A DNA stretch of 63,165 nt, counting the filler. It is 5 parts of 5 records of this genome, joined end to end, with 100 filler letters (N's around TTAATTAATTAA, not from the genome) between each part and the next. Parts side by side here need not be neighbours in the genome. Positions count along the whole stretch, not along the records: positions 19,837 to 36,203 come from SRR33789315_28; 4 more parts are not named here. One strand, written 5' to 3'. The notes beneath the pieces were generated by a model. The model searched no databases and was not told where the DNA came from. It saw only the letters and a list, made by a program, of their open reading frames with translations. Position numbers and translations under genes: made by a program. Positions within the stretch are counted from its first letter, which is position 1. Every line of letters begins with the position of its first letter. This document shows positions 18,055-36,203 of the stretch, piece by piece.

Positions 18055-18179
18055 AACCGTCTCCCTAGATTAAGTGTGTGTCTTAAGTGTGTATCCGAGC
18101 GGTATGCTCAAAAATACCATGAGGCAAAGAGGGTCAGCAAGCCTCAATTGTCCCCATTTTGTTGTATAATAAGGCACTT

Positions 18180-19169
18180 ATGGGTGGTTTTAAGCGCACA
18201 GATCTCTTTCTTCTCTTATTCGTTGCAACCTGTCTGGGGCTGGTTACTTTTTCATGGACCGGCAACTGGGATAGTGATGAATTTAATACGGACAGTCCGC
18301 TGGCCCAGGCTCCAGATAGTGGCTACACCAGCTTCTTTCAAAAAGCGCTTTATTTTAAAATTGTTAAAAATGCACCGTCTATTCATATGGAAGCGAGTCA
18401 GCTGAGTCTTAATTCGCGTAGCAAATGGATTTATTTTTTAGATCCAAGTGGGCGAGCTTTCTCCAATGATGGAACGCCAATTGATTATACTGCGCTCAAG
18501 GGAAGTCTTGATCAAAGCGGTGGTCGCTTAGCGCTTGAAGAAGATGTTCAAGTCATCTCAAGAGATTCAACCATTTCATCTCAGCGAATGAGTTATGTGA
18601 TTGCACAGGATTTACTGACTAGTACTGGAAATGTGAAAGCGAAGTCACTCAATAAAGAAAATGGTGATCTGGTTTGGATCAATAGCGATCAATTGGTGGC
18701 CAATCCAAAACGTCGTGAGGCGGTTTATAGCGGAAATGTGCAAGGTCGGATTCAGAGATCTCGCGTCTATGAGGAAGGAATCTCGTTTGCTTCCGATCGT
18801 GTGGCGCTTGATTTGAACCAACAACATGTCGAACTTCAGGGCGAAGTCTCTATGAAAAAACAGCAACTTACAGCTCAAGCCCGTAGGGGGGAGATATTCC
18901 TCGAGAATTATAACAAAAAGCTCAAGTATTTCGTCCTTTATGACGATGTGAAGCTTAGAGAAAAGGTATCAGCAAAAGGTGAGCGCTTGGAGCGCAAGGC
19001 CTTCGCTGAAAAATTAGAAGGCATAATGAGTGAGGATAGAATTATCCTCACCGGCTTTCCTAAAGTGCTCCAACGTGGAGATATCATTAAAGGAAACCGC
19101 ATTACGCTTAGAGAGAATAACGAGGTGGTGGAAGTGGAAGACGCTAACACCAACTTTAAACTACGCTAG
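18180..19169 (+). CDS. LptC-like TM-anchored protein with additional LptA/OstA-like beta-jellyroll repeats
   Basis: N-terminal TM, repeated jellyroll patterns (GNVK, GNVQG, GEVSM, ILTGFPKVLQ), directly upstream of lptB. Confidence 0.7.
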   Translation: MGGFKRTDLFLLLFVATCLGLVTFSWTGNWDSDEFNTDSPLAQAPDSGYTSFFQKALYFKIVKNAPSIHMEASQLSLNSRSKWIYFLDPSGRAFSNDGTPIDYTALKGSLDQSGGRLALEEDVQVISRDSTISSQRMSYVIAQDLLTSTGNVKAKSLNKENGDLVWINSDQLVANPKRREAVYSGNVQGRIQRSRVYEEGISFASDRVALDLNQQHVELQGEVSMKKQQLTAQARRGEIFLENYNKKLKYFVLYDDVKLREKVSAKGERLERKAFAEKLEGIMSEDRIILTGFPKVLQRGDIIKGNRITLRENNEVVEVEDANTNFKLR

Positions 19170-19836: not shown

Positions 19837-19846
19837 CTATTGTATT

Positions 19847-19872
19847 TGGTGGAGCTGGCGGGATTTGAACCC
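19847..19872 (-). other. ssrA: att core: duplicated 3' end of tmRNA (fragment, not a full gene)
   Basis: Reverse complement reads GGGTTCAAATCCCGCCAGCTCCACCA, the gammaproteobacterial tmRNA T-arm/acceptor end; similarity stops at 19872. Confidence 0.85.
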
Positions 19873-19888
19873 AATTACAGCCCTTTAA

Positions 19889-19980
19889 AATCAATAACTT
19901 ACAATTAAATCAATAAGTTAGTGAAGCGTGTAGGGGCGTAAAAAGGCGTGAAAGCTGGCAAGTGTGGTCGCAATGTGGTC
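19889..19980 (+). promoter_or_regulatory. att arm: two IHF sites and two integrase arm-type repeats
   Basis: AATCAATAACTTA (19889) and AATCAATAAGTTA (19908) fit WATCAANNNNTTR; TGTGGTC at 19963 and 19974 (P2 arm consensus TGTGGACA). Confidence 0.75.
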
Positions 19981-20098
19981 ATTATGATGTTAGGAATTTA
20001 GTTTGATTTTTAATCTCTTCTTTTTCTTTATTGTTTTTACAACAACTTAATAGTATAAAAAAACACTAAAAATGTTGAGATTTTTTAAGGAAGAATAG

Positions 20099-21535
20099 AT
20101 GTCATATGCAGAAAAAGTTTTTGTTGGAACTCTTGATGACGTAGTCGCACGATATCCTTGGGATGAATCTAAGAAGCCATATACTTTAGAAGGTTACTTA
20201 AGCAATCAATTTGAGCCAGGATTACTAGAGCAGCTCTTGAAAGATTTTAATAGTACTTTTCAATTTAATGCATTATTCGGTAGAGAAATCTTAATGAATG
20301 ATGGTTATTTGTTAAATCATCCTGCATCAAAAATATCTATTCTTGAGCCAAATCTTTCCCCCTTAGCTGCTTTGTTAGATGCAGGAAAAGTTAAGATTTT
20401 AAGAAAAAAAGTTAACGTTGGCCTAGATGAAACAGTTTATGACATGGCTGGTCAGAACAATAGATCATATCAATTGCTCACTAAAATGGATGATTGGATG
20501 CAGTATAGGGAGCAATTACAATTAATTTCTAAAAAGTCTGAAAGTATGCTTCCATGGCCAAAAGTTGATGTAAGTCAGGGCCTTGATAAATTTTTTAATG
20601 AATTTCTTTCCAATAAAAAGGATAATTCGACGGAATTCCTTTCCAAAAAAGAAATGAAAAAATTTGAAAAGCAATTCAGGTCTATAAGAGAATCAACAGC
20701 ACCTAGAGACGCATGGGAGAAAGCTGCAATAAAAACATTCGGTTTAAACAAAAAGCCTATATTTCATTTAATGCAGATAGCAAATTCATATTATCATTTT
20801 AACTTTAGCTTGTGTTTGGCATCCGAAACTTATGGCCCGGTTGCAGTGGAAAGTTCTCCTAATATTTATACTAATCAATATTTAGATGTAGAAGATTCTA
20901 ATCTATTTCACGAAGATTTTTACGAAGACATTAAGAATGCTTTTAAGAAAATAGGTAAATTACACTACTTCCCTTCTTCTGATATACTCCTTGATGGTGA
21001 AAAACTTGTTCAATTATATTTTTACTCTAAAGGAAGTCCTGGACTTGCCAAGCAGAAATTTTTAAACGGACTCGAAAAATTTAAAAGGGGAGAGATTGGT
21101 GAGCAGGTATTTTTCGATCTAGTTTATGACTACTCTAATGCTTTACAAGAACTTTTCAGTCCGAATTCTATCGATAGACAGAGTAAATTTAAAATTGATG
21201 TTAATAATTTAAGCTTATGTTTGCCTACCCGTGATGAAATTTTTAATGGAGCCTCAACAGGTATTCTGTCTACTTCTTATCTATCTATTAATGAAGCATT
21301 TGCAACTGGTGCTATTGTAGGATTACATCCAGCTTTTAAGCGTTCAGTCTTAATGCTTAGTTCAAGTTATGATGTTAAACGAATATTATCATTTTCCCAG
21401 TCTCCAATACGTGAACAATCTCTACCTTTGCAATATGCTCAAAATAAAAGTGAATTTTTTTCTAATTTAATTTTTAGCACTTCTGTTAATAATAAATTCG
21501 CTATTGAACATGTTAAAAATTTAAATAGATTTTAA
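20099..21535 (+). CDS. Orphan cargo protein (478 aa), function unknown
   Basis: Long AT-rich ORF with AAGGA RBS between att and integrase; no motif recognised. Confidence 0.75.
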   Translation: MSYAEKVFVGTLDDVVARYPWDESKKPYTLEGYLSNQFEPGLLEQLLKDFNSTFQFNALFGREILMNDGYLLNHPASKISILEPNLSPLAALLDAGKVKILRKKVNVGLDETVYDMAGQNNRSYQLLTKMDDWMQYREQLQLISKKSESMLPWPKVDVSQGLDKFFNEFLSNKKDNSTEFLSKKEMKKFEKQFRSIRESTAPRDAWEKAAIKTFGLNKKPIFHLMQIANSYYHFNFSLCLASETYGPVAVESSPNIYTNQYLDVEDSNLFHEDFYEDIKNAFKKIGKLHYFPSSDILLDGEKLVQLYFYSKGSPGLAKQKFLNGLEKFKRGEIGEQVFFDLVYDYSNALQELFSPNSIDRQSKFKIDVNNLSLCLPTRDEIFNGASTGILSTSYLSINEAFATGAIVGLHPAFKRSVLMLSSSYDVKRILSFSQSPIREQSLPLQYAQNKSEFFSNLIFSTSVNNKFAIEHVKNLNRF

Positions 21536-21539
21536 TAAA

Positions 21540-22526
21540 TTACGCCAACGGATTTAGCTTTATTGCTTCCTCCAAATGCTTAGGTGCAAAGTGTGAATAC
21601 TTCATGGTATCCACAATGCTGGCGTGGCCTAGTATTTCTTTTAATACCATAATGTTGCCACCATTTTGCATGAAATGACTAGCAAATGTATGTCTTAATG
21701 AGTGTGTCATTTGTCCGGACGGCAGTTCAACTCCCGATCTCTTTAAAGCTGAGCGAAACGCACCCCAACAATTCTGAAAAATCCGCCCATTTTTTTTGGG
21801 TAGAGAATTAAAAAATTCTGTATCAATGGGAACTGATCTGCGCTTATTGCCTTTCGTTTTTTCAAAAATTAGTTTGCAGGGTTCGCCATGTATTAATTGA
21901 TTACCAGTAATCGTTTCAGCTTCTCCCCATCTTGCCCCCGTTCTTAGGCACATACTCGCAACTGGCAAAACATCAGGATTCGAACTGTTTTTCAATTCAC
22001 TAAACAGTAATTTAATTTGTTCTGGTGATAAGAACGCCATTTCAGGCTGAACATGTTTAAGGCTTCTAATTCCTGCGATTGGGTTTTCATATTCCCATTC
22101 ACCCAATCGTTTTAACTCGTTAAACATAGCATTAAAGTAAGTTTGGTCATTATTAACTGTTTTGGCCGAAACTGGTTTTTCACCTGTTGTTCTGGATACG
22201 CGATATTGTCCAAACAATTTTGCATCAACGTTTCTAGCAATAGGATTTCCCATTGCTTTTGATATAGCTAAAAGTGTTTTTCTTTGTCTAATTCCACCGG
22301 ACAACGCATGCCCGTGAACTTTGAACCAAGTTTCTATTAAGTCATCAATGGTTCTTAGCTCAATGCTTGGATTCCATTCTTTACCAGAGTGTTTCAGAAC
22401 CATTATGTGATTCTCAAATCTTACTGCTTCACCTTTAGATTTAAACTTTTTGCGTATTCTTTTACCCTCTCGGCCATCTGGCCTTAAGTCTACTTCATAG
22501 CCGCCTTTTACTTGTTTTATTGACAA
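21540..22526 (-). CDS. int: P2/186-like tyrosine integrase
   Basis: YEVDLRPDGREGKRIRKKF arm-binding N-terminus; TGAR, HSLRHTFASHF, LGH, KYSH catalytic residues. Confidence 0.95.
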   Translation of the reverse strand: MSIKQVKGGYEVDLRPDGREGKRIRKKFKSKGEAVRFENHIMVLKHSGKEWNPSIELRTIDDLIETWFKVHGHALSGGIRQRKTLLAISKAMGNPIARNVDAKLFGQYRVSRTTGEKPVSAKTVNNDQTYFNAMFNELKRLGEWEYENPIAGIRSLKHVQPEMAFLSPEQIKLLFSELKNSSNPDVLPVASMCLRTGARWGEAETITGNQLIHGEPCKLIFEKTKGNKRRSVPIDTEFFNSLPKKNGRIFQNCWGAFRSALKRSGVELPSGQMTHSLRHTFASHFMQNGGNIMVLKEILGHASIVDTMKYSHFAPKHLEEAIKLNPLA

Positions 22527-22665
22527 TTTAATAATCCTAATTTTATTTATTTTCTAAAAATATCATAGCCTTATCACGATAACTATTTGGTTGCCGATAT
22601 TTATACTTGGGTATGAAATTACTCCTGTGTAAACACTAACAATTTGGTATTTAAGGATTGTACTA

Positions 22666-22803
22666 ATGAAAAAAAATGTATATAAAATTACCCTATTAAT
22701 TCTGCTATGTTCATTATTTTGTATTAATGCTCAGGCTGGGCAAGGCGGGACTAAAAAACCACCTTCTATTTTTCAAGGTAATGAATGCAACACTTGTTTT
22801 TAG
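22666..22803 (+). CDS. 45-aa secreted prepropeptide (not in ORF track)
   Basis: AAGGA RBS; MKKNVYKITLLILLCSLFCINAQA|GQGGTKKPPSIFQGNECNTCF; basic n-region, hydrophobic h-region, A-Q-A site; overlaps next gene. Confidence 0.75.
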   Translation: MKKNVYKITLLILLCSLFCINAQAGQGGTKKPPSIFQGNECNTCF

Positions 22804-23414
22804 AGATTAATAATTATCTCGTAGCTATATACTTGCTGGTTTTACTAGCAAGTATTTTTATTTTCAAAGAGTTTAATAGCCACACATTATCAGCCTTATT
22901 AATGCTGACTTTCGAGATAATAATGAGATTGGCTGAAAATCCTATATATGATTTTATTTTAACGCTCGGTGTGCATTTTGGCCGATTATTTTGGTTTGGG
23001 TTTTGGTCAGTATTTAACATTTTATTTGTTCGGATTATCTATTATTTGCATGATAGATTGAGCTTGAAGAAGGGAAGGGCGTCTCGTCTAGTAACTAAGG
23101 CTTTAATGTTATTTGTAGTGATACATATATTGGGTTATTTCGACGCTTATTTCATACGTACAGAATTCAGTGAAATCTGTTTTTTAGCCCTCAAGGCTGC
23201 GGGTCAAATAGCCATAATACTTGTGTTGCTCTATGACTTGGGGAATAAGAGCTATAAAGAAGTGGCTTTTTCAAAAGCGGCACATAATAGATCTGTTAAT
23301 TGGTATCAACAAATTATGAAATTGCCTGTCGAACAACGTCCAATTGAATTACTTAAGTGGCGTGAATTCACTGAAAACTTAGAAACCAATAACAATATTA
23401 TGCGGATAAAGTAG
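22785..23414 (+). CDS. Polytopic (about 5 TM) membrane protein with soluble C-terminal tail
   Basis: Five hydrophobic segments then about 55 hydrophilic residues; start overlaps the peptide gene. Confidence 0.75.
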   Translation: MQHLFLEINNYLVAIYLLVLLASIFIFKEFNSHTLSALLMLTFEIIMRLAENPIYDFILTLGVHFGRLFWFGFWSVFNILFVRIIYYLHDRLSLKKGRASRLVTKALMLFVVIHILGYFDAYFIRTEFSEICFLALKAAGQIAIILVLLYDLGNKSYKEVAFSKAAHNRSVNWYQQIMKLPVEQRPIELLKWREFTENLETNNNIMRIK

Positions 23415-23814
23415 ATTGGCTATTTTCTGAAATAGTTTGTGAGTTGATTGTCTTTTTGTACATCATCCTAGCAATCATTATCATTGCTTCCGGTGTCGCG
23501 TCTTTCGTAGGATTTAAAATACCCATTTCAATCGCGCTGTTTACCGTTTCCAAAAAGTCATTTTTAAGCTTTTCTTCATTGATTTCAGGTGGTGTTGAGT
23601 CTCCTTTTTTTTGTGGACCCTTACCCGTCAAAATCCATTCGGCATAATACCCAAATTTATCAGCAGCAATAAAACATGCTTGATATGGAATAGTCCCTCT
23701 GTCTTTCCAGTTACCAGCAATATTTTTGCTAAATCCTAGTTCAACAACCATTCCGCTATCTGTTTTTTGACCTGTCGCTAGTCTCAAGCGCTCTAAAATC
23801 AAGTCTAATTCCAT
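23398..23814 (-). CDS. Phage repressor (CI-like HTH, no S24 peptidase domain)
   Basis: ILERL...ELGFSKNIAGNWKDRGTIPY...EWILTGKG; divergent from cox-like gene. Confidence 0.85.
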   Translation of the reverse strand: MELDLILERLRLATGQKTDSGMVVELGFSKNIAGNWKDRGTIPYQACFIAADKFGYYAEWILTGKGPQKKGDSTPPEINEEKLKNDFLETVNSAIEMGILNPTKDATPEAMIMIARMMYKKTINSQTISENSQSTLSA

Positions 23815-23849
23815 TCAGGAATACCCATATGTATATAAATTATTTCACA

Positions 23850-23916
23850 TCACACAAACGTGTGGCCTAGTATTCACACATTGGTGTGATTGTGCATAAG
23901 AACACATAAACGTGAT
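23850..23916. promoter_or_regulatory. Three putative operators CACAC-N4-GTGTG in the divergent switch region
   Basis: CACACAAACGTGTG (23851), TCACACATTGGTGTGA (23874), degenerate CACATAAACGTGAT (23903). Confidence 0.7.
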
Positions 23917-23930
23917 TAAGGATTATATAT

Positions 23931-24149
23931 ATGGCTACATCATTTGCAATTCAGGCACCATTTGTATCTGTGACTAAGTTTGCTGAACTTACTGGTCAAC
24001 CCCTAGGCGCGGTAACTGAACAGCTCAAAAATGGTCAATTACCAGAGTTTATTCTTCCCGCCTCGGTTAGGCAAAAAGATCCATCTTCAACCCGTCGTAA
24101 AAAGTTTATCAATCTCGTTCGTTTATACGCTGATGCTCAAGAAGCTTAG
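23931..24149 (+). CDS. Cox/Apl-like excisionase-regulator
   Basis: PFVSVTKFAELTG...GQLP...FINLVRL; divergent from repressor; AAGGA RBS. Confidence 0.8.
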   Translation: MATSFAIQAPFVSVTKFAELTGQPLGAVTEQLKNGQLPEFILPASVRQKDPSSTRRKKFINLVRLYADAQEA

Positions 24150-24159
24150 GGTGTTTGAA

Positions 24160-24606
24160 ATGACTAATCAATCTGTTTTATCTCAAACCCTCTTTTATCA
24201 AACCATAACCTTTAGTTACCCCTGTACGGTAACCCTAGAGCAATACTTAGAACTTTGCGCCCATTGCCCTGAAGGTTATGAGCAATCCTTAACCGTCACC
24301 GATAAACCCACTCAATTTCATTTTAATAACCAAGCGGTACTGAATGCCGTTTTACATTCTCTCCCTGTGATAGAGCCTGTCCTCCTGTTTGATGATGCAA
24401 TTAGGCCTTGCAAAAACTGTGACGTTGACGGCATATGTACCGCCAAATGTCTGAGTCAACCTTGTCAACCTGAAGGCGCACCGACATGCCTACCAAAAAA
24501 ATCTACTACGACCGTATGCTTGGCACATACGCCTTTGAACCTGAGTACCCGCATTCAATCATTGAATTCGATTACTACTCAGAACTCGTCGCGCATTGCG
24601 TCTTAA
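24160..24606 (+). CDS. Hypothetical phage protein with Cys cluster
   Basis: ATG just after cox stop; CKNCDVDGICTAKC; 3' end overlaps next ORF, so extent is uncertain. Confidence 0.45.
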   Translation: MTNQSVLSQTLFYQTITFSYPCTVTLEQYLELCAHCPEGYEQSLTVTDKPTQFHFNNQAVLNAVLHSLPVIEPVLLFDDAIRPCKNCDVDGICTAKCLSQPCQPEGAPTCLPKKSTTTVCLAHTPLNLSTRIQSLNSITTQNSSRIAS

Positions 24607-24689
24607 CGTACGGCCAAGACATTGAATTCATCGAAGTCACAGAAGACAACTGGCAAGAACTCCACGATGCCGGTGCCTTCAACCGATAA
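24486..24689 (+). CDS. Small acidic phage protein upstream of rep
   Basis: 67-aa ORF with GAAGG upstream, overlapping rep start. Confidence 0.55.
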   Translation: MPTKKIYYDRMLGTYAFEPEYPHSIIEFDYYSELVAHCVLTYGQDIEFIEVTEDNWQELHDAGAFNR

Positions 24690-25761
24690 GTGCATTATCG
24701 ATTACCTGTCATTGGTGTTTGATAACGATGAATTAGACCGTTTAAAAATGCTGGCTAAACTGCAATTTGAGACCGATAAAACCCGTAGTTTTCAAGATTA
24801 TTATCATCAGCTTTTATCCCCTGAAGACGTCAACAACTTTGACCAAGTGCTAGGGGCAAATATCGAGCATTTTATCTCCAAGCTCAATACCACCATGAGC
24901 AAATATTACTACGACTTAAAAGAGTGGGAAGCGATTTCAGGTGAAGGGTTCATCCCGAATGATTATCAATTTTGGACCATCAAGAATAACCACTTTGGCC
25001 GCTTTAAATATGACAACTCCGCTAACTTATACTTTGAAGGTCAGCTCGTCGGGTTGGTGTGTTGGGGCTGTAAAAACTATGGGGCGATGGTCAGCTTTTC
25101 CGGTAAAGCCTGCGGCTCACTGAACTTTGATGAAATGTTTAAAATCTGTGATGACTTGGGCTATGTCCGCATATCCAGAATCGACATTGCGCACGATGAT
25201 TTCACCGGCACTCACAACGTTAACACCTGTCGTCAGATGTTTAAAAACGGCCTATTTACTGTCACCTCAGAGCCAAGCTATCAATATTTTGAATCCGGTG
25301 TATTAACCAAATCTGGCAAGCTTATTCCCAGCAATGGCCGTTCGTTCTATGTCGGTAAACGTACCTCTGGAAAAATGCTCAGATGCTACGAGAAGGGCAA
25401 GCAGTTAAAAGACGAAGCCAATCCCGATTGGAACCGCTGGGAAGTAGAGCTTCGCAACATCGACAGAGTCATTCCCCTTGATGCTCTGAAAGACCCCCAC
25501 AAGTATTTTGCAGGGGCCTATCCCGCCCTTGCTGCATTCAGTCAGCGTCAAGAGCGCATTGTCTTAAAAGTTAAAAAATTGGTGGCCACATACAACCACT
25601 TATTCAAATACCTAAAACAAGGGTATGCCCCCTTAATGAATTATGCCTTTCAGGCTTTAGGTATGACCAAAGAAGAAATATTCGATGAAATCACCCAAGG
25701 GCTTTTTATCGATGATTTTCCAAAGCGCCTCAAATGTGAAGCGCTCGTTCTTTCCACTTAA
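24667..25761 (+). CDS. Rolling-circle replication initiator, Rep_trans (RstA/pT181-like) family
   Basis: IDYLS, SRIDIAHDD, FYVGKRTSGKMLRCYEKGKQL, WNRWEVEL; start trimmed to ATG 24667. Confidence 0.92.
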   Translation: MPVPSTDKCIIDYLSLVFDNDELDRLKMLAKLQFETDKTRSFQDYYHQLLSPEDVNNFDQVLGANIEHFISKLNTTMSKYYYDLKEWEAISGEGFIPNDYQFWTIKNNHFGRFKYDNSANLYFEGQLVGLVCWGCKNYGAMVSFSGKACGSLNFDEMFKICDDLGYVRISRIDIAHDDFTGTHNVNTCRQMFKNGLFTVTSEPSYQYFESGVLTKSGKLIPSNGRSFYVGKRTSGKMLRCYEKGKQLKDEANPDWNRWEVELRNIDRVIPLDALKDPHKYFAGAYPALAAFSQRQERIVLKVKKLVATYNHLFKYLKQGYAPLMNYAFQALGMTKEEIFDEITQGLFIDDFPKRLKCEALVLST

Positions 25762-25782
25762 CCACAACAAAGGTAATTAATT

Positions 25783-26088
25783 ATGGGCTTACAAGTAACA
25801 CTTTTATGCGTATCGATGGGTAAAGGGGTATCCACTAAATCCGGTTTACCTAAACCTTACGAGTTTTCCTTTGTGGAATACCTCGTGCCTGCCACGAACT
25901 ACATTCAAGGCGACCACAATATTCAAAAAGCGGGGTATGAGGTCAAGCAAATCGCCATGATAAGCAACGAGCAGTTATACAAAAAAATTGCCTCGGCTAA
26001 ACCTTTATCACTGGTGGATTTAGAGCTCAGTGCCGATCCGCAAAACCCAGCAAAAAACATTGTGACTGATATCAAGGTTGCGGCTTAA
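25783..26088 (+). CDS. ssDNA-binding protein (pV-like)
   Basis: About 100 aa directly after rep; GVSTKSGLPKPY hairpin motif. Confidence 0.8.
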   Translation: MGLQVTLLCVSMGKGVSTKSGLPKPYEFSFVEYLVPATNYIQGDHNIQKAGYEVKQIAMISNEQLYKKIASAKPLSLVDLELSADPQNPAKNIVTDIKVAA

Positions 26089-26091
26089 CTC

Positions 26092-26406
26092 TTGGCCAGT
26101 TGCTACCAGTTCACAGGAACGGCCACCCACAACAATGGCGAAACGGTGCATACCTTCTTGCCTAATGTTGTTTCCGACCCCTCAGAGTGTTTGGCCGTTC
26201 TGGATGGTTTTGTTGTGCTGACTCCTCGTGAGTACGTGCAACAAAAAGCGGATGCTGATGCACTGACAGAGATTGCCAGTGTGACAGCATTTGTCGACCC
26301 CGTAGAAGTCAGCGCGGTTTACGGGACAAGCTTTGCATTGATTTTTTTTCTCTCTGCCATCGCTTACAAAATCAAAGTCGCTAAACGTTTTATTAAACTT
26401 TCTTAA
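26092..26406 (+). CDS. Minor virion protein (pVII/pIX-like position)
   Basis: VVLTPREY, C-terminal TM with basic tail; between pV and coat. Confidence 0.65.
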   Translation: MASCYQFTGTATHNNGETVHTFLPNVVSDPSECLAVLDGFVVLTPREYVQQKADADALTEIASVTAFVDPVEVSAVYGTSFALIFFLSAIAYKIKVAKRFIKLS

Positions 26407-26422
26407 ATTAGGAGTACATAAC

Positions 26423-26557
26423 ATGGCTGATATTTTTGCCGCTGTAGACTTAGAGACCGTAGCAACCTTCGTGGCTGCCATTGGTGTATTGATTATCGGT
26501 ATTGCCCTTGCAGAAAAAGGGATTTCTATCGGTAAACGCAACGTCCGCAAGGCGTAG
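26423..26557 (+). CDS. Major coat protein pVIII, 44 aa, leaderless (not in ORF track)
   Basis: AGGAG RBS; MADIFAAVDLETVATFVAAIGVLIIGIALAEKGISIGKRNVRKA: acidic N, TM, basic C. Confidence 0.9.
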   Translation: MADIFAAVDLETVATFVAAIGVLIIGIALAEKGISIGKRNVRKA

Positions 26558-26563
26558 CGAATT

Positions 26564-26662
26564 ATGTTGGCGGGGATTTTCCTCGCCCTCATTTACACCC
26601 TTGTGGGTGTCATGGGGGCGCTATCGGGGTTCATTGTATCATGGCTTATATTTACAGATTAA
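26564..26662 (+). CDS. 32-aa hydrophobic minor coat protein candidate (not in ORF track)
   Basis: MLAGIFLALIYTLVGVMGALSGFIVSWLIFTD between coat and pIII. Confidence 0.65.
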   Translation: MLAGIFLALIYTLVGVMGALSGFIVSWLIFTD

Positions 26663-28212
26663 CAGCCGCGCTTTTTGCGGTTTTTTTTGCTTTTCAATCC
26701 TCCGCGATTCGGCTTGGTAACGATAAGCCTAACGATGTTTGGGATGACTCATTGTTCGACTATGCCTTTGGCAAGCGTCCCTTAATGATTATCCCCAAAA
26801 TCTATAACTGTCATTATTTAAGTGAGTACTTAGAAAAAAACCTAGGCGACTGTCAAAGCTATGCCCTTAGCACGTTCCTTGAGGCATTGTCGGAGCAGTT
26901 TCCTTCGAAATCCTGTGTGGCTACATCAGAATGGGATTTCAGCATTGATACAGAGAATTATAAAAAAGCCTCTCGTCAAATTACCTGCACTGACCAAAAT
27001 AATAAATCAACTCGATACTCCACAGCGTTTACATGGGGCTATTCGCTGGGCGAAGAAGGCCCGCAATGTCCCCCTGAGGAGGAAAAATATATTGAATATA
27101 GAACCCTCGCGTATGTGGGTGAAGCGCCTTTTTGCTGGAACGTAGACGATTTAAACGAACGAGATTCGTGTCCTAATTCCACGTCTGACGGAGACTATGT
27201 TTTACCCGTTGGCAATAATCAGTCTGAAAAGGTTTGCTTAGAAAAGGATGACGGCTCTTTTTGTGCTTATCAAAAAAACGGGGATGTTTATGTGGCTGAT
27301 TTTGAGCGCAGTTGTTACGACACGCCTTCTCTTGAAACGGCTTACGATGCGCCCGATGTGTCTCCCGCTGATGACAATGAATGCGCTGTTATCGCCTCTT
27401 CATCTGGTATTTATTTGTGTCCTGAAGACCCCCAAGATAAATGCACCGTGAGCGGCACGGTTAATGGTCAACCTGCATATTCTTCTTGTGAGACAGGGTG
27501 CGGGTATGTTGACTTGAAAGGCTCAGGTCAATCAACCTTTCAATGTATTTCTTCAGATGAAGACGGGGACGGCATTCCCGATGTGCGCGACCCTGATTAT
27601 GTGCCCCCTGATGAAACCGATCCCCAAGACCCAACCGACCCTGAAGAGCCAGAAGACCCAACAGAGCCCACAGACGATTCCGATAAGTCGATTACGACGC
27701 GCATTGATAGAACAAATTATGAGCTTGCAAAGGCGAATCAGTCCCTAGCCTCTATTGACGCTAAGGCCACACAAACGAATTCACAGCTCAACGCTGTTAA
27801 CAGTGAATTGGATAATATAGCCGGTGGCATAGGGGCCTTGAATAACAAATCTGATGGCATATTAACTGAAGTTAAAAAAATCACTGCAGGTGATACTTCT
27901 GGAACACCTTTTAGCTCCGAGCCTAGCACCAATTTAACAGGGTTCTACACCCCAGTTTATGAAAACGGATTTCAATCGATTTGGAGCAACAACGAGCAAG
28001 CGTTCAACAATTCATCAACAAAACAATATATTGAGCAGTGGAAAGTCACCGTCAACGGGGATTTCACTTACCCTTCGTTTTGTTTTGATTTGGGCTTCGT
28101 CAATCTAGGCTGTCACGTTATCGAGATTGATGGCCGTATCCTTTCTTTTATCCGCATTATTTTAATTATTAGCGCCTTGATACTGGCACGACAAATTACC
28201 TTAGGGGGTTAG
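26641..28212 (+). CDS. Adsorption protein (pIII-like)
   Basis: Signal peptide, Cys-rich domains, P/D/E linker, C-terminal TM anchor. Confidence 0.85.
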   Translation: MAYIYRLTAALFAVFFAFQSSAIRLGNDKPNDVWDDSLFDYAFGKRPLMIIPKIYNCHYLSEYLEKNLGDCQSYALSTFLEALSEQFPSKSCVATSEWDFSIDTENYKKASRQITCTDQNNKSTRYSTAFTWGYSLGEEGPQCPPEEEKYIEYRTLAYVGEAPFCWNVDDLNERDSCPNSTSDGDYVLPVGNNQSEKVCLEKDDGSFCAYQKNGDVYVADFERSCYDTPSLETAYDAPDVSPADDNECAVIASSSGIYLCPEDPQDKCTVSGTVNGQPAYSSCETGCGYVDLKGSGQSTFQCISSDEDGDGIPDVRDPDYVPPDETDPQDPTDPEEPEDPTEPTDDSDKSITTRIDRTNYELAKANQSLASIDAKATQTNSQLNAVNSELDNIAGGIGALNNKSDGILTEVKKITAGDTSGTPFSSEPSTNLTGFYTPVYENGFQSIWSNNEQAFNNSSTKQYIEQWKVTVNGDFTYPSFCFDLGFVNLGCHVIEIDGRILSFIRIILIISALILARQITLGG

Positions 28213-28213
28213 C

Positions 28214-28531
28214 ATGTGGGCAACATTAAAATCGTGGTGGCAAACGTCGATAGATTTTTCTTACCGCTTAATACTCACGGTCTTTGATTTTTTCAAAGAT
28301 TTTCTATTCTACGTTCTTGATACCTTAATGGCGATTGCCATTGGTTTTTTAGATTTGGTCGGCGGGGCATTTTCAAGCCTTAACCCTTTGCAATATGTCA
28401 GCGCGATACCGCCTGAGACACAAGGCATGATGCAAGCAACCGGCTTTAACGAGTGCATGAGCATTATCGTTGCGGCAATTGGTATCAGGTTTCTATTACA
28501 ACTCATTCCCTTTGTTCGCTGGGGGTCATAA
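28214..28531 (+). CDS. pVI-like minor coat protein (DUF2523-like)
   Basis: Hydrophobic 105 aa ending IRFLLQLIPFVRWGS; between pIII and zot. Confidence 0.85.
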   Translation: MWATLKSWWQTSIDFSYRLILTVFDFFKDFLFYVLDTLMAIAIGFLDLVGGAFSSLNPLQYVSAIPPETQGMMQATGFNECMSIIVAAIGIRFLLQLIPFVRWGS

Positions 28532-29748
28532 TGATAAACGGTATTGTCGGACGGCCAAGAACGGGTAAAAGCTACGAAGCAACCCGATATCATATTATTC
28601 CAACGGTGCTAAATGATAAGCGCCTTGTTGTGACCAACATCCCCATCAATAAGGAATACATCGCTAAAATTCACGGCCAAGAATACGCTGATCTCATTGT
28701 CGTTGTTGACGGTCAATTTAGTGAGTACGGTAAAATCAAACCCTTTGCTCACGAAAACGATTTTTTAAAGTACAAGGATTGGAAAAACGACAAAGGCCAA
28801 GGTGCCTTGTTTGTCACCGATGAAGTCCATTTAACCTGTGGAGCAAGAAGCGCCCGACCCGAACTATTAGAATATTATTCCTTACATGGTCACTATGGCC
28901 ATGACCACTTAATTCTCACTCAGAACGCTCGAAAAATTCATCGTGATTTAAAAGACATGACCGAAATTGTGTGGCGAACCACGAAGTTATCCGCTTTTGG
29001 AAAAGATGAAACGTACTTCCGCAACACGCATCACGGTTTTGACAACCTGAGGGAGTCTGTACACCGCTCTGAAAGGCAGTATGACCCTGAGTGGTATCCT
29101 TACTATAAGAGTCATACTTTGTCAGAAACGAGCGTCATTGAAGCGGTCAGCAAAGAAGTTAAAGCGGTCCTTAATCCTTACAAAAAAATATCCACTATTT
29201 TTATCGGGGCAGGACTTTTATTCATTACGTTTTTACTGGTACGTGTTTTTACCAAAGAGCTGCAACACATTGACCTGTCTCACCTTGAAAAAAATGTTCA
29301 GCAAGAAGACCAAGAGCAAACGTTAAAGTCTGACACGCTTACTTATGTAAAGCCGATTAAACCGCTATCTAATGAGCAATCTTCACTAGAAACAAGGGAT
29401 AAAAAAACAACTTCAGACGGTAAAACCTTAATCCTGAGCGCGAACGCCAAAGAGAAGCAACGCCTCAAGGAAAAAAGCCAAGAATATCACCCTTTTTATA
29501 AAGTGAAGCTTCACGTATCCGGTTACGGCTCCGATACTCGCACCAATCAAATGTATTACTTCTCGGCCAGCTCTAACGGTCAAGAGCTGTTTGAACTCTC
29601 ATTAAAGGATCTCATCTTAGCCGGTTACACCGTGCGCGTTCTGGGTGGCTGTGCTGTTGAGATTATGTATTTTGATTACCGTGATTTTATTACGTGTGAT
29701 GTTCCGACGATTAGTGTTTCTGCTCCTGCTTTAGCCAAGGTTGATTAA
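28531..29748 (+). CDS. zot: Zot / pI assembly ATPase
   Basis: MINGIVGRPRTGKS Walker A, VTNIP, DEVH, LTQ, single TM; TAATG coupling to pVI gives start 28531. Confidence 0.93.
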   Translation: MINGIVGRPRTGKSYEATRYHIIPTVLNDKRLVVTNIPINKEYIAKIHGQEYADLIVVVDGQFSEYGKIKPFAHENDFLKYKDWKNDKGQGALFVTDEVHLTCGARSARPELLEYYSLHGHYGHDHLILTQNARKIHRDLKDMTEIVWRTTKLSAFGKDETYFRNTHHGFDNLRESVHRSERQYDPEWYPYYKSHTLSETSVIEAVSKEVKAVLNPYKKISTIFIGAGLLFITFLLVRVFTKELQHIDLSHLEKNVQQEDQEQTLKSDTLTYVKPIKPLSNEQSSLETRDKKTTSDGKTLILSANAKEKQRLKEKSQEYHPFYKVKLHVSGYGSDTRTNQMYYFSASSNGQELFELSLKDLILAGYTVRVLGGCAVEIMYFDYRDFITCDVPTISVSAPALAKVD

Positions 29749-29812
29749 TTTAAATTTCGTCGGAAGGGGCCCCCGTTTCGTCGGGGAAGGACCCGACGAA
29801 ATTTAATCAACC
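29739..29812. repeat. Long inverted repeat after zot
   Basis: GGTTGATT[AATTT]AAATTTCGTCGG ... CCGACGAAATTTAATCAACC. Confidence 0.8.
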
Positions 29813-29872
29813 CTTTACTATGATTGCAAAATTCGTCCAGGCTCACGCGCCGGCAACAGCAAAATGCAATCA

Positions 29873-30124
29873 TTAATCAGGCTGCAGCAGCGTTGCCAGG
29901 ACAGAATCTGCCATCACTTTATCTCGGTACGCTTCTTTAATATTCCACAGCTCTTTTTCTAGTGTTGCAATGAAGGCGGTTTGTTCTTTTATCGTTTCGT
30001 GTTGCACAACGGCCAAGCCTGCACACCTTATCAACGTTTTAGACGCCGATTTCTCACTAAGCAAACGACTCGCTTTTTCAATAAGTTTATCGTCTTCTGG
30101 TGTCGTTCTGATGGTTAACGCCAT
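29873..30124 (-). CDS. Small hypothetical protein (possible ribbon-helix-helix plus coiled coil)
   Basis: MALTIR beta-strand start, helical rest; coupled to upstream ORF. Confidence 0.55.
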   Translation of the reverse strand: MALTIRTTPEDDKLIEKASRLLSEKSASKTLIRCAGLAVVQHETIKEQTAFIATLEKELWNIKEAYRDKVMADSVLATLLQPD

Positions 30125-30336
30125 TAGAAATCACTCTCTCTAAAAGTGACTTGCTGACTGTCACCATACACAACCGCATCAAATCGGTTTTTGCTCTGTG
30201 CTAGTTTCGCGAGTCTTCTTTTGATGATGACTTCAGTTTTATCAAAGGGTTTATCTAACGTGCTTCTGCTTTTTTTGCCTGTTGTGAAATTCGTAATAAT
30301 CAAAGTAACCATGCTGTTATCCCCAAAGTGAATCAT
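30124..30336 (-). CDS. Small basic hypothetical protein
   Basis: 70-aa ORF whose stop overlaps the next start; alternative start at 30312. Confidence 0.5.
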   Translation of the reverse strand: MIHFGDNSMVTLIITNFTTGKKSRSTLDKPFDKTEVIIKRRLAKLAQSKNRFDAVVYGDSQQVTFRESDF

Positions 30337-30546
30337 TCATTAAGTGTGGCGGCTGCTTGCCAGCCATTTGCCGCGCTTACTGAGTGATAACGAAGAGGAC
30401 TAAGACACAGAATCTTGTCAATGAAATAAATCGCCCGTAGGGTCGCAACGCGAGGGGGTCCCCTTTGGGGTTCCGATTTATGTAATTGATTAGATGATGG
30501 GGTGTGTCATTGGGGTTTACTGCCTTTCGCGGCGAGCGAACCCATG
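30334..30546. other. Highly structured GC-rich intergenic region (candidate single-strand origin / packaging signal)
   Basis: Hairpin 30334-30386; multibranch 30426-30481; hairpin about 30512-30546. Confidence 0.6.
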
Positions 30547-30634
30547 TGGGAGCATAACGCTTTAATACCTCAACTACAAAATGATGTCTTTTAAACTATA
30601 TTTATGTTGAAGCTTTTAAAATAAAAGGTGTTTT

Positions 30635-30853
30635 ATGGACAAGTACATTACAGGCAGTGACCTTACACTCATCAGAAAAGAAGCAAGGATGACAACCACA
30701 AAGACGGCAGAGTTTGCTGGCGTTAAAACACGAAAAACCTATGAAAATTGGCAAAGAGAAAATGGCGAACCGAATATCAATCAATTCATCTCTATCCTGA
30801 TAGGGTGTGGTAAAGACCCCTATGAGTACTTTAAATCCTTGAAGCTTGATTAA
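30635..30853 (+). CDS. XRE-family HTH protein
   Basis: LIRKEARMTTTKTAEFAGVKTRKTYENWQRENGEP; AAGGTG RBS. Confidence 0.8.
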   Translation: MDKYITGSDLTLIRKEARMTTTKTAEFAGVKTRKTYENWQRENGEPNINQFISILIGCGKDPYEYFKSLKLD

Positions 30854-31063
30854 TCGGCATCAAACTTACAAGGGTGTTTTCAATAGTTAGAGTTAGTCTG
30901 ACTAGGCACTATGTGCCAACACCAATCGTTCGGCTTATCTTCCTATGCATGATATCAACTTTGGTTTTATATTTTGAGTTTGTGGATAGGCTATTTGATT
31001 TCTTTCACTTTATGAGAGACTATTTGTACAAAATATAAACAAATAAAGTTTTGGAAAGGAATC

Positions 31064-32638
31064 ATGAAAATAAATCAGGAACAAAAAAATATTCTGCTTG
31101 ATTACTTCAGCGATGAGGAGCCATTTGGTCCTGTAAATGCTGCTGAGATAGAAGATCCTAAAGTCTTAGAACTAATATTTGAGCAACATAATAAGTTGTT
31201 TAAGGCACTCAAGAAACGCCCTACCATTGTTGTTGGCCGAAAAGGTGCTGGAAAAACCTCTTATTTGAATTCAGTATTTTTCGAGGGCGTATATGATTTC
31301 AAAGTCGAATTAGATACTGCGAAAGCTCTGACTTCTGTTATTGAAAGTATTGCATTATTCAAAGGTGGAGCAATTTTTGCTGAGTCTGTGGCTGAAATTT
31401 GGGAGAACGTTTTATTCACTGGTGCTTTTTCTGAACTGCGGAATCAACTCAAAAGTAATAGTAAAGCTAAAAAGCTAATTAACGATTATCTTGCAAAAAT
31501 TGGAATACGCGATGCGGGAACATTCGATGATGTTCTTTGGCACATGGCAGATATTTTCGCTGATAAGAGCAAGAACGGCAGTATCAATGTGATTGCAGAG
31601 GTGTTGAGAGCATTATCCAACAATGAGTTTAAGGATGTAAAGACTGAGCTTTGTAAAGAGCTTGCCCAGGAGAATAAGCGAGCAGTAATACTTCTGGATT
31701 CACTTGACAATTTTCAATTGGATATCAACGAAGTCGCGCGAGCAATTCAAGGGTTACTAAAACGAATAGGTGAGTCGAATAAGCCTTTAAATCGCATTGA
31801 TATAAGATTTTGCCTACCTGCTGAACTATTTCACGTTTTTGTTCCTTTATCTTCTAATCCTACAAAAGACTTTAAGAGAAAAATACTACTCCATTGGGTG
31901 GCTTCTGAACTGGTCATGCTTGCTGCACATCGCTTAAAAATTTACTCTCAACTTGACCTGGAAAAATTGCCAACCATTATTGATGATTTGGAAATATCAG
32001 ACAAAGAATCAGCCCAGACGATCATTAAAAGTATTCTTCCATCAAGCATAACTTGCAGGCTTGGTGTTCGAGAGGACTCTCTGGCTTACATATTAAGACA
32101 TACTCAGCTATTACCTCGTCATTTATTACTAATTCTAAATTCAATCTGTGATCAAAATAAAAAGCTGAATAATAGGGGTGAAACGTTTTCTGTTAGCGAG
32201 GATGCTGTAAAAAAAGGAGTAAGAGATATTGAAGATATGATTGTTCAGGAAATCTTTGGTGCATTTTCGGGACTATATCCACACGCAAAAGTTGTCTGTG
32301 AGGGATGTTTACCCGAATTGCACAGTAAATTCTCCCGCGGAGATCTAGAGAGAGTATTTAGGCGAAATGGTAAAAGATTATTTCAATCCGATGAGTTTGA
32401 TGATTTTCAACAGATGTTAATAGAAATTGGCTGTATTGGCAGAGTGTTAGATGATCAAGGCAAGTATATTCAAGGTCAATTTGAATATACCGTCCCATAT
32501 AAATTGGTCACTAGCTCTGATGACCTTTTGTGTATCCATCCTCTTTTTTGCGAATTGTTTAATGTAAAAATAAGAGAACAGAAACCAATCTATCCTTATG
32601 GGTCGAAAATTGAAGATAAGGATGTGCGAGAGTTATAA
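31064..32638 (+). CDS. Stand-alone P-loop ATPase (Sll1717-like), cargo
   Basis: VVGRKGAGKT Walker A, VILLDSLD Walker B, RHTQLLPRHLL, C-terminal IHPLF. Confidence 0.78.
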   Translation: MKINQEQKNILLDYFSDEEPFGPVNAAEIEDPKVLELIFEQHNKLFKALKKRPTIVVGRKGAGKTSYLNSVFFEGVYDFKVELDTAKALTSVIESIALFKGGAIFAESVAEIWENVLFTGAFSELRNQLKSNSKAKKLINDYLAKIGIRDAGTFDDVLWHMADIFADKSKNGSINVIAEVLRALSNNEFKDVKTELCKELAQENKRAVILLDSLDNFQLDINEVARAIQGLLKRIGESNKPLNRIDIRFCLPAELFHVFVPLSSNPTKDFKRKILLHWVASELVMLAAHRLKIYSQLDLEKLPTIIDDLEISDKESAQTIIKSILPSSITCRLGVREDSLAYILRHTQLLPRHLLLILNSICDQNKKLNNRGETFSVSEDAVKKGVRDIEDMIVQEIFGAFSGLYPHAKVVCEGCLPELHSKFSRGDLERVFRRNGKRLFQSDEFDDFQQMLIEIGCIGRVLDDQGKYIQGQFEYTVPYKLVTSSDDLLCIHPLFCELFNVKIREQKPIYPYGSKIEDKDVREL

Positions 32639-32791
32639 TTTTATTTTAACTATTGTAAATGCTTTAAACGAAATCAGCTCCAATTAACGATACATTTTCA
32701 ATGTTTACGTTAATTGTATGTCCCCTTCGCTCAAAGCCGCCTTTCGAAAAATTATCAAACAGACCAAAAGGCTAAAATCTTAGCGCTGACC

Positions 32792-32822
32792 GATACCCCC
32801 CATTACTAATAGGGGGGGTATC
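32792..32822 (+). other. Putative double-strand origin (Rep nick hairpin)
   Basis: Stem GATACCCCCC/GGGGGGTATC with loop ATTACTAATAG containing CTAATAG, as in pT181-family nick hairpins. Confidence 0.7.
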
Positions 32823-33295
32823 TTTTTCAAAAACTAACACTTTTTATTTGACACCGCTCAACTCTAACTTTCGTTAAACAAAAAGATTTAGTAATTTTCT
32901 GTTCGTCCACAACTATATATTGTTTCTGGTGCGTTATCTTATTGGGCCGCTGGTGTCGTACTAGATGAAAAAGAAGACTATTTATTTCTTTAATTAAACA
33001 AGCTTAATTTGGATAAGTTAGTTAGGAGTATTAAATTATGCCCAACACATCATTTTACCTCTACTGAACTAGGTACGATCCACGATGGCGGTTTAAATTA
33101 ATCAGTTCATGTCTCGTATTTTCTTATGAGAGCAAGAGCTAATACCAAAATCAAACTAATAAATCCATTTAAGCCATATCAAAAACTTTCTTTTGTTTTT
33201 ATTTGCTACAAATGATAGCTGTAAAGAAATTATTTTTTCAGGGCAAGTCGAGAACAGTGTAAAATAGAAAAACATTTAGTTTTGGGGTAACAAAT

Positions 33296-34819: not shown

Positions 34820-34830
34820 GGAATAGAATA

Positions 34831-35814: not shown

Positions 35815-36152
35815 CTAAAAAGTCGCTCATTTAAAGGAAGGTACTAGTCTTAATACATTTAAAAAAAAGATCCTAAGCTCCAATAAATTAAACTTTAATT
35901 TTTTACAAACTTAACAACCGTTCTCATTTTACCAAAAACGTTTGACAGCATTTTATTTACATTAATTTATACTTCTTCATATTCGTCTTTAAGCACTGAA
36001 CACCAAATTTGATCCAGTTGTACTTGTAGAGTAAGTGTTTTTCAATGCAGTGAGGACGTTATTTTTAAGTTCTTTCTTTTTTCATATCCTTAAATACAAA
36101 GTATTTTATTTTGTATAATTCTCAAATAAAGAAGTGATTAGCTTAAAAAAAG

Positions 36153-36203
36153 TGTGGTCAATTTGTGGGAGTGCAAAAATAAAAAAGCCCCTAACTTATT
36201 GAA
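36153..36203 (+). promoter_or_regulatory. Right att arm: integrase arm repeats and IHF-like site
   Basis: TGTGGTC (36153) and TGTGGGA (36164), same 11-bp spacing as left end; TAACTTATTGA (36192) is the reverse complement of left TCAATAAGTTA. Confidence 0.7.

Follow-up and report, generated by a model that had tools for sequence, protein, structure and literature searches.

A pair of overlapping genes was analysed that lies between the integrase gene and the repressor gene of a filamentous prophage, in a stretch of DNA of 63,165 nucleotides (nt) referred to below as the window. This window consists of several contigs joined by N...TTAATTAATTAA...N linkers, and the contig of the pair covers positions 19837-36203 (Table 1). 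The first gene is an open reading frame (ORF) of 45 codons, predicted to encode an exported peptide; the second, of 209 codons, encodes a protein with five predicted transmembrane helices (5TM) and a C-terminal tail. As the initial annotation of this DNA had it, the two genes sit between integrase and repressor, and the membrane-protein gene runs into the convergent repressor gene; its end was located 17 nt inside the latter. Comparison with related loci indicates that the pair is a minimal, fused copy of a conserved, so far undescribed cassette; a full-text search of the literature, in which matches were judged mostly by listing or abstract, found no description of such a cassette.

The translation of the 45-codon ORF was identical to that given in the initial annotation, and its ribosome-binding site (AAGGA, 8 nt before the ATG) was confirmed. 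The encoded peptide starts with three lysines in MKKNVYK, followed by a hydrophobic core of 13 residues and by A-Q-A at positions -3 to -1. Judged by the established (-3,-1) rule for signal-peptidase cleavage rather than by SignalP, this agrees with the Sec signal peptide that had been proposed, and cleavage after AQA would leave the 21-residue mature peptide GQGGTKKPPSIFQGNECNTCF, with GQGGTKKPP as its head and C-N-T-C-F as its end. The peptide ORF overlaps the 209-codon gene by 19 nt, the latter having its own AAGG 6 nt upstream of the start. The start region, AAGGATTGTA-N-TAATG, was retrieved at the same place in related phage contigs, including L001. The metagenome contigs L001-L003 (L002 duplicating L001) represent the same prophage type and contain, between the integrase gene and the membrane-protein gene, an ORF starting with MKKLGYKI... 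in the same ribosome-binding-site context. Over 35 alignable codons, dN/dS was 0.21 both for window-L003 and for L001-L003; over the signal-peptide codons 1-24, it was 0.95 (window-L001), 0.29 (window-L003), and 0.20 (L001-L003). In addition, a profile of the window, L001, and L003 peptides matched five small proteins called in public assemblies (P0040-P0044), one of which has two copies of a G-x-S-x-R-P-P head. The conserved position and ribosome-binding site, the database relatives, and the dN/dS values of 0.21 indicate that the 45-codon ORF is a real gene.

The 209-residue protein was modelled with AlphaFold2 from an alignment of 68 sequences (pLDDT 92.6), giving five long helices (residues 2-27, 32-59, 63-91, 98-123, and 127-153) and two tail helices (158-178 and 185-197), as expected from the roughly 5TM protein with a soluble C-terminal tail that had been proposed. 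Lysine and arginine number 15 in loops 1-2 and 3-4 plus the tail versus two in the N-terminus plus loops 2-3 and 4-5, which, by the positive-inside rule, places the N-terminus outside and the tail in the cytoplasm. According to the AlphaFold2 helix limits, the most conserved residues include W70, W74, L54, and Y133 toward the periplasmic side and S32 and H89 at the cytoplasmic ends; conserved polar residues in or near the membrane are S32, E44, H89, and N/Q141. A HMMER search of 1.84 billion representatives (E ≤ 1e-3) retrieved 35 family proteins, with alignments starting at residue 1. Three of these are full-length and fused like the window protein (37-39% identity), most consist of the 5TM part alone (129-178 residues, one other of 77, from residue 1), and tail-only matches comprise four proteins of 59-81 residues (P0007, P0024, P0029, and P0035), at least two of which (P0007 and P0024) have their own N-terminal membrane helix. 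Similarly, the 5TM part (169 amino acids, aa) and the tail (77 aa) are encoded by separate overlapping genes in L001 and L003. The family has three architectures, namely fused, 5TM only, and tail only.

Among the PHROG families, phrog_31674, of unknown function, matched residues 6-161 of the window protein (E 1.9e-7) and 21 of 33 family members (best E 4.6e-15); there was no match to a PHROG of named function, nor to any NCBIfam or PADLOC model. Pfam gave no match for the window protein at E ≤ 0.1 and no recurring family among the 33 members at E ≤ 5, so that a MASE3 identity (E 0.07) was dropped. A sequence profile search of the PDB returned no matches at E ≤ 5, Foldseek returned none in the PDB at E ≤ 1e-3, and a wide VIA-align search had designed helical bundles as its best match (Z 8.6), with nothing standing out. 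Unnamed clusters and one auto-named MreD were all that the protein Atlas returned. No match was obtained by tblastn with three family members against 50,697 phage records, the 209-aa protein retrieved nothing but itself in a word-index protein search, and pattern scans with the family alignment in genome contigs and viral contigs gave nothing that was confirmed.

The genes around the 5TM family were compared across 53 loci, including the contig of the window (L002, L009-L016, and L062 were dropped as duplicates), which hold 58 5TM genes at E ≤ 1e-3. Fifty-five of these genes were evaluable, having at least 350 nt of upstream sequence. A small ORF was counted when it lay on the same strand, encoded at most 175 residues, ended at most 90 nt inside the 5TM gene or at most 450 nt upstream of its start, and contained the motif (G-x-G or GG)-x1-4-P. 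Such an ORF was present upstream of 46 of the 55 genes; among the controls, 939 different ORFs of 40-175 residues from the same loci, the number was also 46. The initial annotation had proposed to test whether such an ORF is always upstream of the homologues, and it was found for most of them, with nine misses. Two of the nine (L001 and L003) contain the homologous ORF with a degenerate head, QGKSVRPP; two are the second gene of tandem 5TM pairs (L037 and L039); L055 lacks an upstream ORF within 445 nt of sequence; the remaining ones are L022, L048, L050, and L057. The distance between the small ORF and the 5TM start has a median of a few nt, with 14 of the 46 overlapping and many ending 30-340 nt before.

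A hydrophobic N-terminal segment occurs in 33 of the 46 small proteins, preceded by lysine or arginine in 29 of those. The proteins are hydrophilic, Gly/Pro-rich, repetitive, and not amphipathic. At least two copies of the motif are present in 19 of them (range 1-13), in tandem repeat units of 9-20 residues, and 19 have a C-x2-6-C pair; both the G..G.K.PP head and the C-terminal cysteine pair singled out by the initial annotation are hence features of the family. Examples are NGGGLKPDPLI, repeated four to five times in Alteromonas sp. a30 and a Paraneptunicella metagenome-assembled genome, VGGGGVEPIA, counted 13 times in the small protein of L043, and L017, with GDGLEPPRPSS twice and then FCILGMCFGV at the end. 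Many motifs of the family have a single proline (GGGVEPV), and motif classes follow clades. The window peptide can be regarded as the minimal form, with one motif and one cysteine pair. Downstream of most copies, one or two genes encode a membrane-anchored helical tail, as found by matches to a hidden Markov model (HMM) of the tail. The cassette is made up of a small motif protein, a 5TM protein, a membrane-anchored cytoplasmic tail, and, in over a third of the copies, a convergent CI-like regulator. A FlgM-like identity of the small proteins without a signal peptide was rejected, as there was no Pfam match at E ≤ 1.

As to this regulator, the window repressor scores 21.8 bits against Phage_CI_repr (cut-off 22) as a single sequence, and the profile of its CI-like cluster matches, with its N-terminal domain, phage 186 CI (2fjr) at 2.1e-5. 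A short C-terminal domain is common to this cluster, which includes the window repressor and cassette-linked regulators elsewhere. Directly downstream of the 58 5TM genes and convergent with them, a CI-like gene of the cluster was found in 13 cases and a helix-turn-helix (HTH) gene of a second cluster in a further eight (21 in total); L004 and L005 have a weakly HTH-like ORF in this position. Among 42 convergent-ORF candidates, Pfam Phage_CI_repr was matched in 11 (best E 1.5e-11) and HTH_3 in 13. In three genomes (G001, G002, and G003), the CI-like family has 22 copies, 14 of which lie within 5 kb of a 5TM gene (5/9, 7/7, and 2/6, respectively), whereas about 0.4 of the 22 would be expected by chance (a target of 230 kb in 11.9 Mb). 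Conversely, coordinate comparison showed that 11 of the 23 5TM genes in these genomes have a CI-like neighbour. Stand-alone chromosomal modules were encountered too, consisting of the peptide gene, the 5TM gene, one or two tail genes, and the convergent CI-like gene, with nothing phage-like beyond; in three of four chromosomal loci that were read, a divergent Cro-like gene follows the CI-like gene. P2-like elements combine the same cassette with the same regulator C-terminal domain. In PMC12715192, lysogeny modules are reported to be exchanged between unrelated phage groups, in passages that do not concern the cassette; a cassette-plus-regulator unit common to inoviruses and P2-like phages is in line with such exchange.

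At the protein level, the window and L001 are 71% identical in the integrase, 68% in the repressor, 83% in Cox, 67% in Rep, 57% in RstB, and 62% in the tail, compared with 28.6% in the 5TM domain, and the alignment of their peptides does not extend beyond the signal peptide and head, the mature part being unalignable. At the DNA level, calculated in steps of 75 nt, identity is 0.59-0.80 in the integrase gene, 0.41-0.57 over about 22716-23300 (barring one gap-filled step), and, starting at 23302, 0.64-0.84 across the tail and the larger part of the repressor gene (one step 0.56). This pattern indicates joint change of the mature peptide and the 5TM domain, whereas the tail goes with the repressor and the backbone. 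Identity falls again, to 0.35, at 23827-23901, where the palindromes between repressor and cox are located; at the same place in L001 (2045-2078), other palindromes occur, TCACATGTGA twice. Different palindromes in otherwise similar phages suggest different immunity groups.

Within the variable block, a 12-bp hairpin with a U-run was found 44-70 nt after the 5TM start codon, where it does not cover the ribosome-binding site of the 5TM gene. Its minimum free energy is -14.6 kcal/mol (z -4.4), and none of 200 shuffled sequences was as stable. L001 and L003 contain a stem and U-run at the same place, with five of 11 pairs changed on both sides, and another clade has a different conserved stem at nt 92-120 of the 5TM gene. 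The hairpin is a candidate for a partial terminator or attenuator that favours the peptide message.

With respect to its distribution, the cassette was not confined to the filamentous prophage type of the window. It was retrieved in P2-like elements, with Ogr-type zinc-finger genes in L004-L008 (translations read by eye) and a gpA-type initiator in L027, and in chromosomal sites without phage genes around, three of which are syntenic across genomes; by eye from the translations, chromosomal neighbours include antiporter, dGTPase-like, and photolyase-like genes. Because of these phage-free sites, the cassette is not phage-specific, and the system of a filamentous prophage that the initial annotation had envisaged proved too narrow. 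Some copies form tandem arrays, and G001, G002, and G003 contain 7, 11, and 5 copies, respectively. Genomes sampled at a threshold of E ≤ 1e-5 were positive in 34 of 201 cases for the family of G001 (from one to at least 17 copies each) and in 28 of 401 for the order; in the class sample, the only positive of 400 was the centre genome itself. The cassette is widespread in marine bacteria and belongs to marine gammaproteobacteria and their temperate phages.

Several loci show variants of this arrangement. In L021 (G002:C8), an insertion at 4805-6744 between the 5TM gene and the tail genes contains a 526-aa and a 111-aa ORF, which we take, by eye from the translation, to be of IS66 type; this copy is probably disrupted. 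In one clade of small genomes (L041, L051, L053, L056, L059, and L061), a divergent gene for a 199-208-aa membrane protein, presumably rhomboid-like as judged by eye from its translation, adjoins the cassette on the opposite strand (about 450-1080), and the small proteins start with MFE(S/T)IAMICYLS, without a basic N-terminus. In the clade of L043, L049, L052, and L060, the cassette precedes an apparent RNA gene region with conserved spurious ORFs; the gene before it in L049, L052, and L060, and not in L043, is presumably rsmI-like (by eye), and the small proteins are almost pure repeats of (V)GGG(G)VEP(V/I/L), 5-13 times. Just upstream of the cassette in L006, at 4056-5439, lies a second unit with a signal-peptide protein containing GVGFGFGDP three times, a 250-aa protein with multiple transmembrane segments and a soluble tail, and a convergent 103-aa ORF. 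This look-alike was rejected as a family member, as it is not homologous (hhalign probability 0.2).

The interpretation that we favour, tentatively and at somewhat less than an even chance, is that a variable membrane sensor has a periplasmic peptide as its partner and acts, through its tail, on a CI-type switch. It is preferred because of the topology, the conserved residues at both faces of the membrane, the pattern of a variable sensor and a conserved transmitter, the link with the regulator, and the stand-alone modules. Signal peptidase would release the peptide into the periplasm, where it would be the cognate partner of the fast-evolving, outward-facing 5TM domain. The state of this domain would be relayed via the conserved cytoplasmic tail to the adjoining CI/Cro-type switch, for instance by membrane capture or release of the repressor; an N-terminus outside and a tail inside fit such a relay across the membrane. 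In a prophage, the choice between maintenance and excision or replication could be biased in this way. The hairpin and U-run after the peptide stop might yield more peptide message than receptor message, and convergent transcription into the repressor gene might cause mutual interference. The peptide may act on the producing cell alone or might reach neighbours too, and the peptide communication put forward in the initial annotation is hypothetical. That annotation had also considered signalling to the integrase, to which no link was found.

A number of observations weigh against this interpretation. In 13 of the 46 small proteins, a hydrophobic segment at the N-terminus is missing, and a periplasmic site of action is therefore not universal. 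The core motif is common to all paralogues within one genome, which would be expected of a generic docking or processing site no less than of a private signal. Furthermore, an HTH gene of either main cluster is absent from the position directly downstream in 37 of the 58 copies (35 when the weak ORFs of L004 and L005 are counted as HTH), and some copies sit among ordinary chromosomal genes; the adjacent repressor that the initial annotation had proposed to look for is supported by the 21 convergent HTH genes and by the 14 of 22 CI-like copies near a 5TM gene. No k-mer of at least 10 and no palindrome is common to the peptide promoter region and the repressor-cox region. Terminator-like hairpins are not family-wide, being present in 20 of 58 cases versus 31 of 197 control windows, a modest enrichment. 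For the pair window-L001, dN/dS of the peptide ORF over 35 alignable codons is 0.96. Given the size limits of porins, it is not evident how a disulfide peptide of 21 residues would cross the outer membrane. Finally, the cassette counts include many close relatives and are neither de-replicated nor corrected for phylogeny. A complex prediction for tail residues 150-209 and the repressor, made without alignments, gave a score of 0.00 and a mark of 0.34, which weighs neither for nor against. On the whole, homologues with an upstream peptide ORF and a link to phage switches were found, largely as the initial annotation had anticipated.

Several known systems resemble the cassette in part. Arbitrium (AimP-AimR-AimX) is also phage-borne, with a signal-peptide pro-peptide gene beside lysis-lysogeny genes and a peptide that differs between related phages. 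The arbitrium receptor is a cytoplasmic tetratricopeptide repeat (TPR) protein of the RRNPP type, and the peptide is re-imported, whereas the partner found here is a 5TM protein with a cytoplasmic tail, in a diderm host, in a cassette that also occurs outside phages, and there is no homology; no TPR or RRNPP family was found among nine neighbouring proteins scanned. Rap-Phr of Bacillus likewise comprises many paralogous two-gene cassettes in one genome, often on mobile elements or prophages, with genes that overlap and a pro-peptide exported via Sec. The receptor Rap is cytoplasmic and of the TPR type, with phr located downstream of its gene, whereas here the peptide gene precedes that of a membrane protein, again without homology. 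The agr system (AgrD/AgrB/AgrC) has a small peptide gene beside that of a polytopic membrane protein of about 170-210 residues, a hypervariable block of peptide and membrane domain flanked by conserved sequence, and a cysteine near the peptide C-terminus. The peptide of the cassette differs in its Sec signal peptide and Gly/Pro repeats, no match to the AgrB family was found for the window protein at E ≤ 0.1 or for 33 members at E ≤ 5, and neither a histidine kinase nor a response regulator was present among the neighbours scanned. In its logic, the cassette appears most like arbitrium and Rap-Phr, and in its hypervariable block like agr; of their defining features, a TPR receptor, AgrB, and a kinase were not found. 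The switch itself resembles CI-Apl(Cox) of phages 186 and P2, with a repressor N-terminal domain like that of 186 CI, a divergent Cox-like gene, and two palindromic candidate operators between them, and the repressor and Cox genes can be taken as ordinary 186/P2-type parts. In 186 and P2, the repressor gene adjoins the integrase gene and has the same direction, whereas here the two are separated by the oppositely oriented cassette, and the C-terminal domain of the repressor is a short one of its own, common to other cassette-linked regulators.

Superinfection exclusion (Sie) or envelope defence, an alternative already raised in the initial annotation, remains a live rival, although we consider it unlikely on balance. 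The peptide and membrane proteins of the lysogen would block phage entry, of DNA or of the pIII type, at the inner membrane, the repressor being the other half of an immunity region and the chromosomal copies retained remnants of such regions. The map position between integrase and repressor is that of sie2009 and ltp in other temperate phages, and the Sie genes sie2009, Ltp, P1 Sim, and Pf PfsE have a secreted or membrane-bound product as well. Likewise, the cassette moves between unrelated phage types like a moron, its hypervariability fits an arms race, and other defence genes are located on the same contig. Compared with the Sie genes, however, there is no sequence or family match, neither to a PADLOC model nor to a PHROG family of named function, and the cassette consists of several parts, including a cytoplasmic tail. 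Tandem arrays, a copy number per genome of 5 to at least 17, and syntenic phage-free chromosomal sites in three genomes would be unusual for Sie, and exclusion leaves unexplained the conserved tail and a motif repeated up to 13 times. Moreover, the tail evolves with the backbone and not with the variable part.

An improbable alternative is a maturation or export unit. The small protein would then be a precursor with one or several core repeats, the 5TM protein would be an exporter or an enzyme that processes the precursor within the membrane, and the tail would assist it; the product would have its role elsewhere, be it in signalling, as an adhesin-like factor, or as an antimicrobial. The tandem repeats (9-20 residues, up to 13 copies) do resemble multi-core precursors, and a conserved short motif in every paralogue fits a recognition or cleavage site. 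The hairpin after the precursor gene, typical of precursor-enzyme operons, the conserved polar residues S32, E44, H89, and N/Q141 in or near the membrane, and the variants without a signal peptide, which would need another export route, are in keeping with this too. For the 5TM protein, however, no similarity to a known peptidase, transferase, or transporter family was found, nor a fold match that stood out; with about 165 residues, it has no invariant catalytic set, its best-conserved positions being two tryptophans, and its hypervariability would be unusual for an enzyme.

A toxin/immunity pair, also suggested initially, looks weaker and is highly improbable. On this view, the peptide would be secreted as a toxin resembling a bacteriocin or microcin, and the membrane proteins would protect the producer. 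A small secreted peptide with a C-terminal cysteine pair (19 of 46) beside a polytopic membrane protein would suit this, as would the many paralogous hypervariable cassettes per genome, which recall bacteriocin/immunity arrays. Yet the peptides do not resemble membrane-active toxins, being hydrophilic, repetitive, rich in glycine and proline, and not amphipathic; the leader is of the Sec type and not of the double-glycine type; no dedicated exporter of the ABC/C39 kind was seen among the genes read beside the cassettes inspected; 13 of the 46 lack any export signal; and a cytoplasmic tail with a linked CI-like regulator would be unexpected. Lastly, a regulatory leader ORF of the SecM/MifM/VemP kind, in which the nascent chain would stall at G..PP to set expression of the membrane-protein gene and the peptide would be functionless, is barely plausible, since its favourable points (a signal-peptide ORF overlapping the membrane-protein gene start, a PP-containing motif, and a conserved RNA hairpin close by) are countered by a motif that occurs in up to 13 copies and often has a single proline (GGGVEPV being no known stalling context), by a hairpin that lies 3' of the 5TM start codon and leaves the ribosome-binding site uncovered, by the many copies that end 30-340 nt before the 5TM gene, and by C-terminal cysteine pairs conserved beyond the motif, the combination of a single C-terminal motif and a hairpin hiding the downstream ribosome-binding site that marks arrest leaders not having been found.

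Extended from the window to the family, the peptide-sensing interpretation becomes less likely: Gram-negative bacteria would have, together with their temperate phages, a family of switches gated by peptides, with an exported peptide, a private and fast-evolving 5TM receptor, and a tail that controls a CI/Cro bistable switch. If so, a peptide signal would determine the state of filamentous and P2-like prophages and of many chromosomal modules that stand alone. The family would then be an equivalent of arbitrium and Rap-Phr in diderms, with entirely different components. To our knowledge, peptide-based phage decision-making is known only from Gram-positive hosts, with cytoplasmic receptors. Two unrelated phage types carry the cassette within their lysogeny switch, and many copies occur alone in chromosomes; it can be searched for by sequence rules (the motif, the 5TM family, the tail, and the linked CI-like regulator). 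Were it a signalling unit, peptide communication in diderm bacteria and inoviruses would be open to direct test; were it an exclusion or defence unit, that unit would be both new and abundant. In both cases, the analysis defines a sizeable family, consisting of small and mostly unannotated genes with their partners, and points to culturable hosts such as Alteromonas sp. a30.

Table 1. Features on the contig of the peptide and membrane-protein genes (positions in the window).
Feature	Position	Strand	Remarks
478-aa ORF, no family	20099-21535	+	low GC (0.32); between tRNA 3'-end copy and integrase
Tyrosine integrase	21540-22526	-	Int_N 3.4e-32, Phage_integrase 7.3e-18, phrog_1 5.6e-63; divergent from peptide gene
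Ribosome-binding site AAGGA	22653-22657	+	8 nt 5' of peptide ATG
45-codon peptide ORF	22666-22803	+	translation
Signal-peptide part, predicted, MKKNVYKITLLILLCSLFCINAQA	22666-22737	+	conserved in L001, L003, P0040-P0044
Mature 21-residue peptide, predicted, GQGGTKKPPSIFQGNECNTCF, and stop	22738-22803	+	one motif copy G-x-G..P-P; C-x2-C-F end
209-codon membrane-protein ORF	22785-23414	+	translation
5TM domain, residues 1-153	22785-23243	+	hypervariable part of 209-residue protein
12-bp hairpin (22829-22855) and U-run	22829-22865	+	26 nt after peptide stop; 5TM codons 15-27
Cytoplasmic helical tail, predicted, residues 154-209 (AHNRSVNWYQ...)	23244-23414	+	separate membrane-anchored gene in relatives
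CI-like repressor, 138 aa	23398-23814	-	Phage_CI_repr E 2.4e-4; convergent, 3' end overlaps tail coding end by 17 nt
Two palindromes CACAC-N4-GTGTG	23851-23864, 23874-23889	.	repressor-cox intergenic; candidate operators
Cox/Apl-like excisionase-regulator	23931-24149	+	phrog_575 1.1e-8; Phage_Cox 2.9e-3 (below cut-off); divergent from repressor
Rep_trans initiator	24622-25761	+	Rep_trans 1.7e-28
RstB	25783-26088	+	CTX_RstB 5.2e-28
Coat-like genes, pIII-like protein, DUF2523 protein, Zot	beyond RstB	+	pIII-like PHROGs; DUF2523 9.2e-6; Zot 1.5e-20

Matches to family HMMs revealed the gene order of a rolling-circle initiator (Rep_trans), ssDNA-binding RstB, and the morphogenesis ATPase Zot/pI that is taken to define a CTXphi-like filamentous prophage, and the contig hence carries such a prophage with a P2/186-type switch. 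At its start, a 26-nt copy of a tRNA 3' end (19847-19872), the sole copy within the window, is likely an att half-site; ARAGORN found no whole tRNA, and Rfam gave no match on this contig. On the 3' side of Zot, the contig contains a gene for a NACHT/PDC-M28C-like ATPase (31064-32638), a defence gene adjoining the prophage, and a defence pair of a type II methyltransferase (33296-34819) and a restriction enzyme (34831-35814). On another contig of the same record, a 336-aa ORF (18159-19169) matches the LptC model with residues 25-197 and the LptA model with residues 206-331, and may represent a fused LptC-LptA; it is followed by LptB, which starts at 19185 and is cut by the contig end. Provided that the contigs belong together, the presence of LptB and LptC/LptA-like proteins indicates that the host is diderm.

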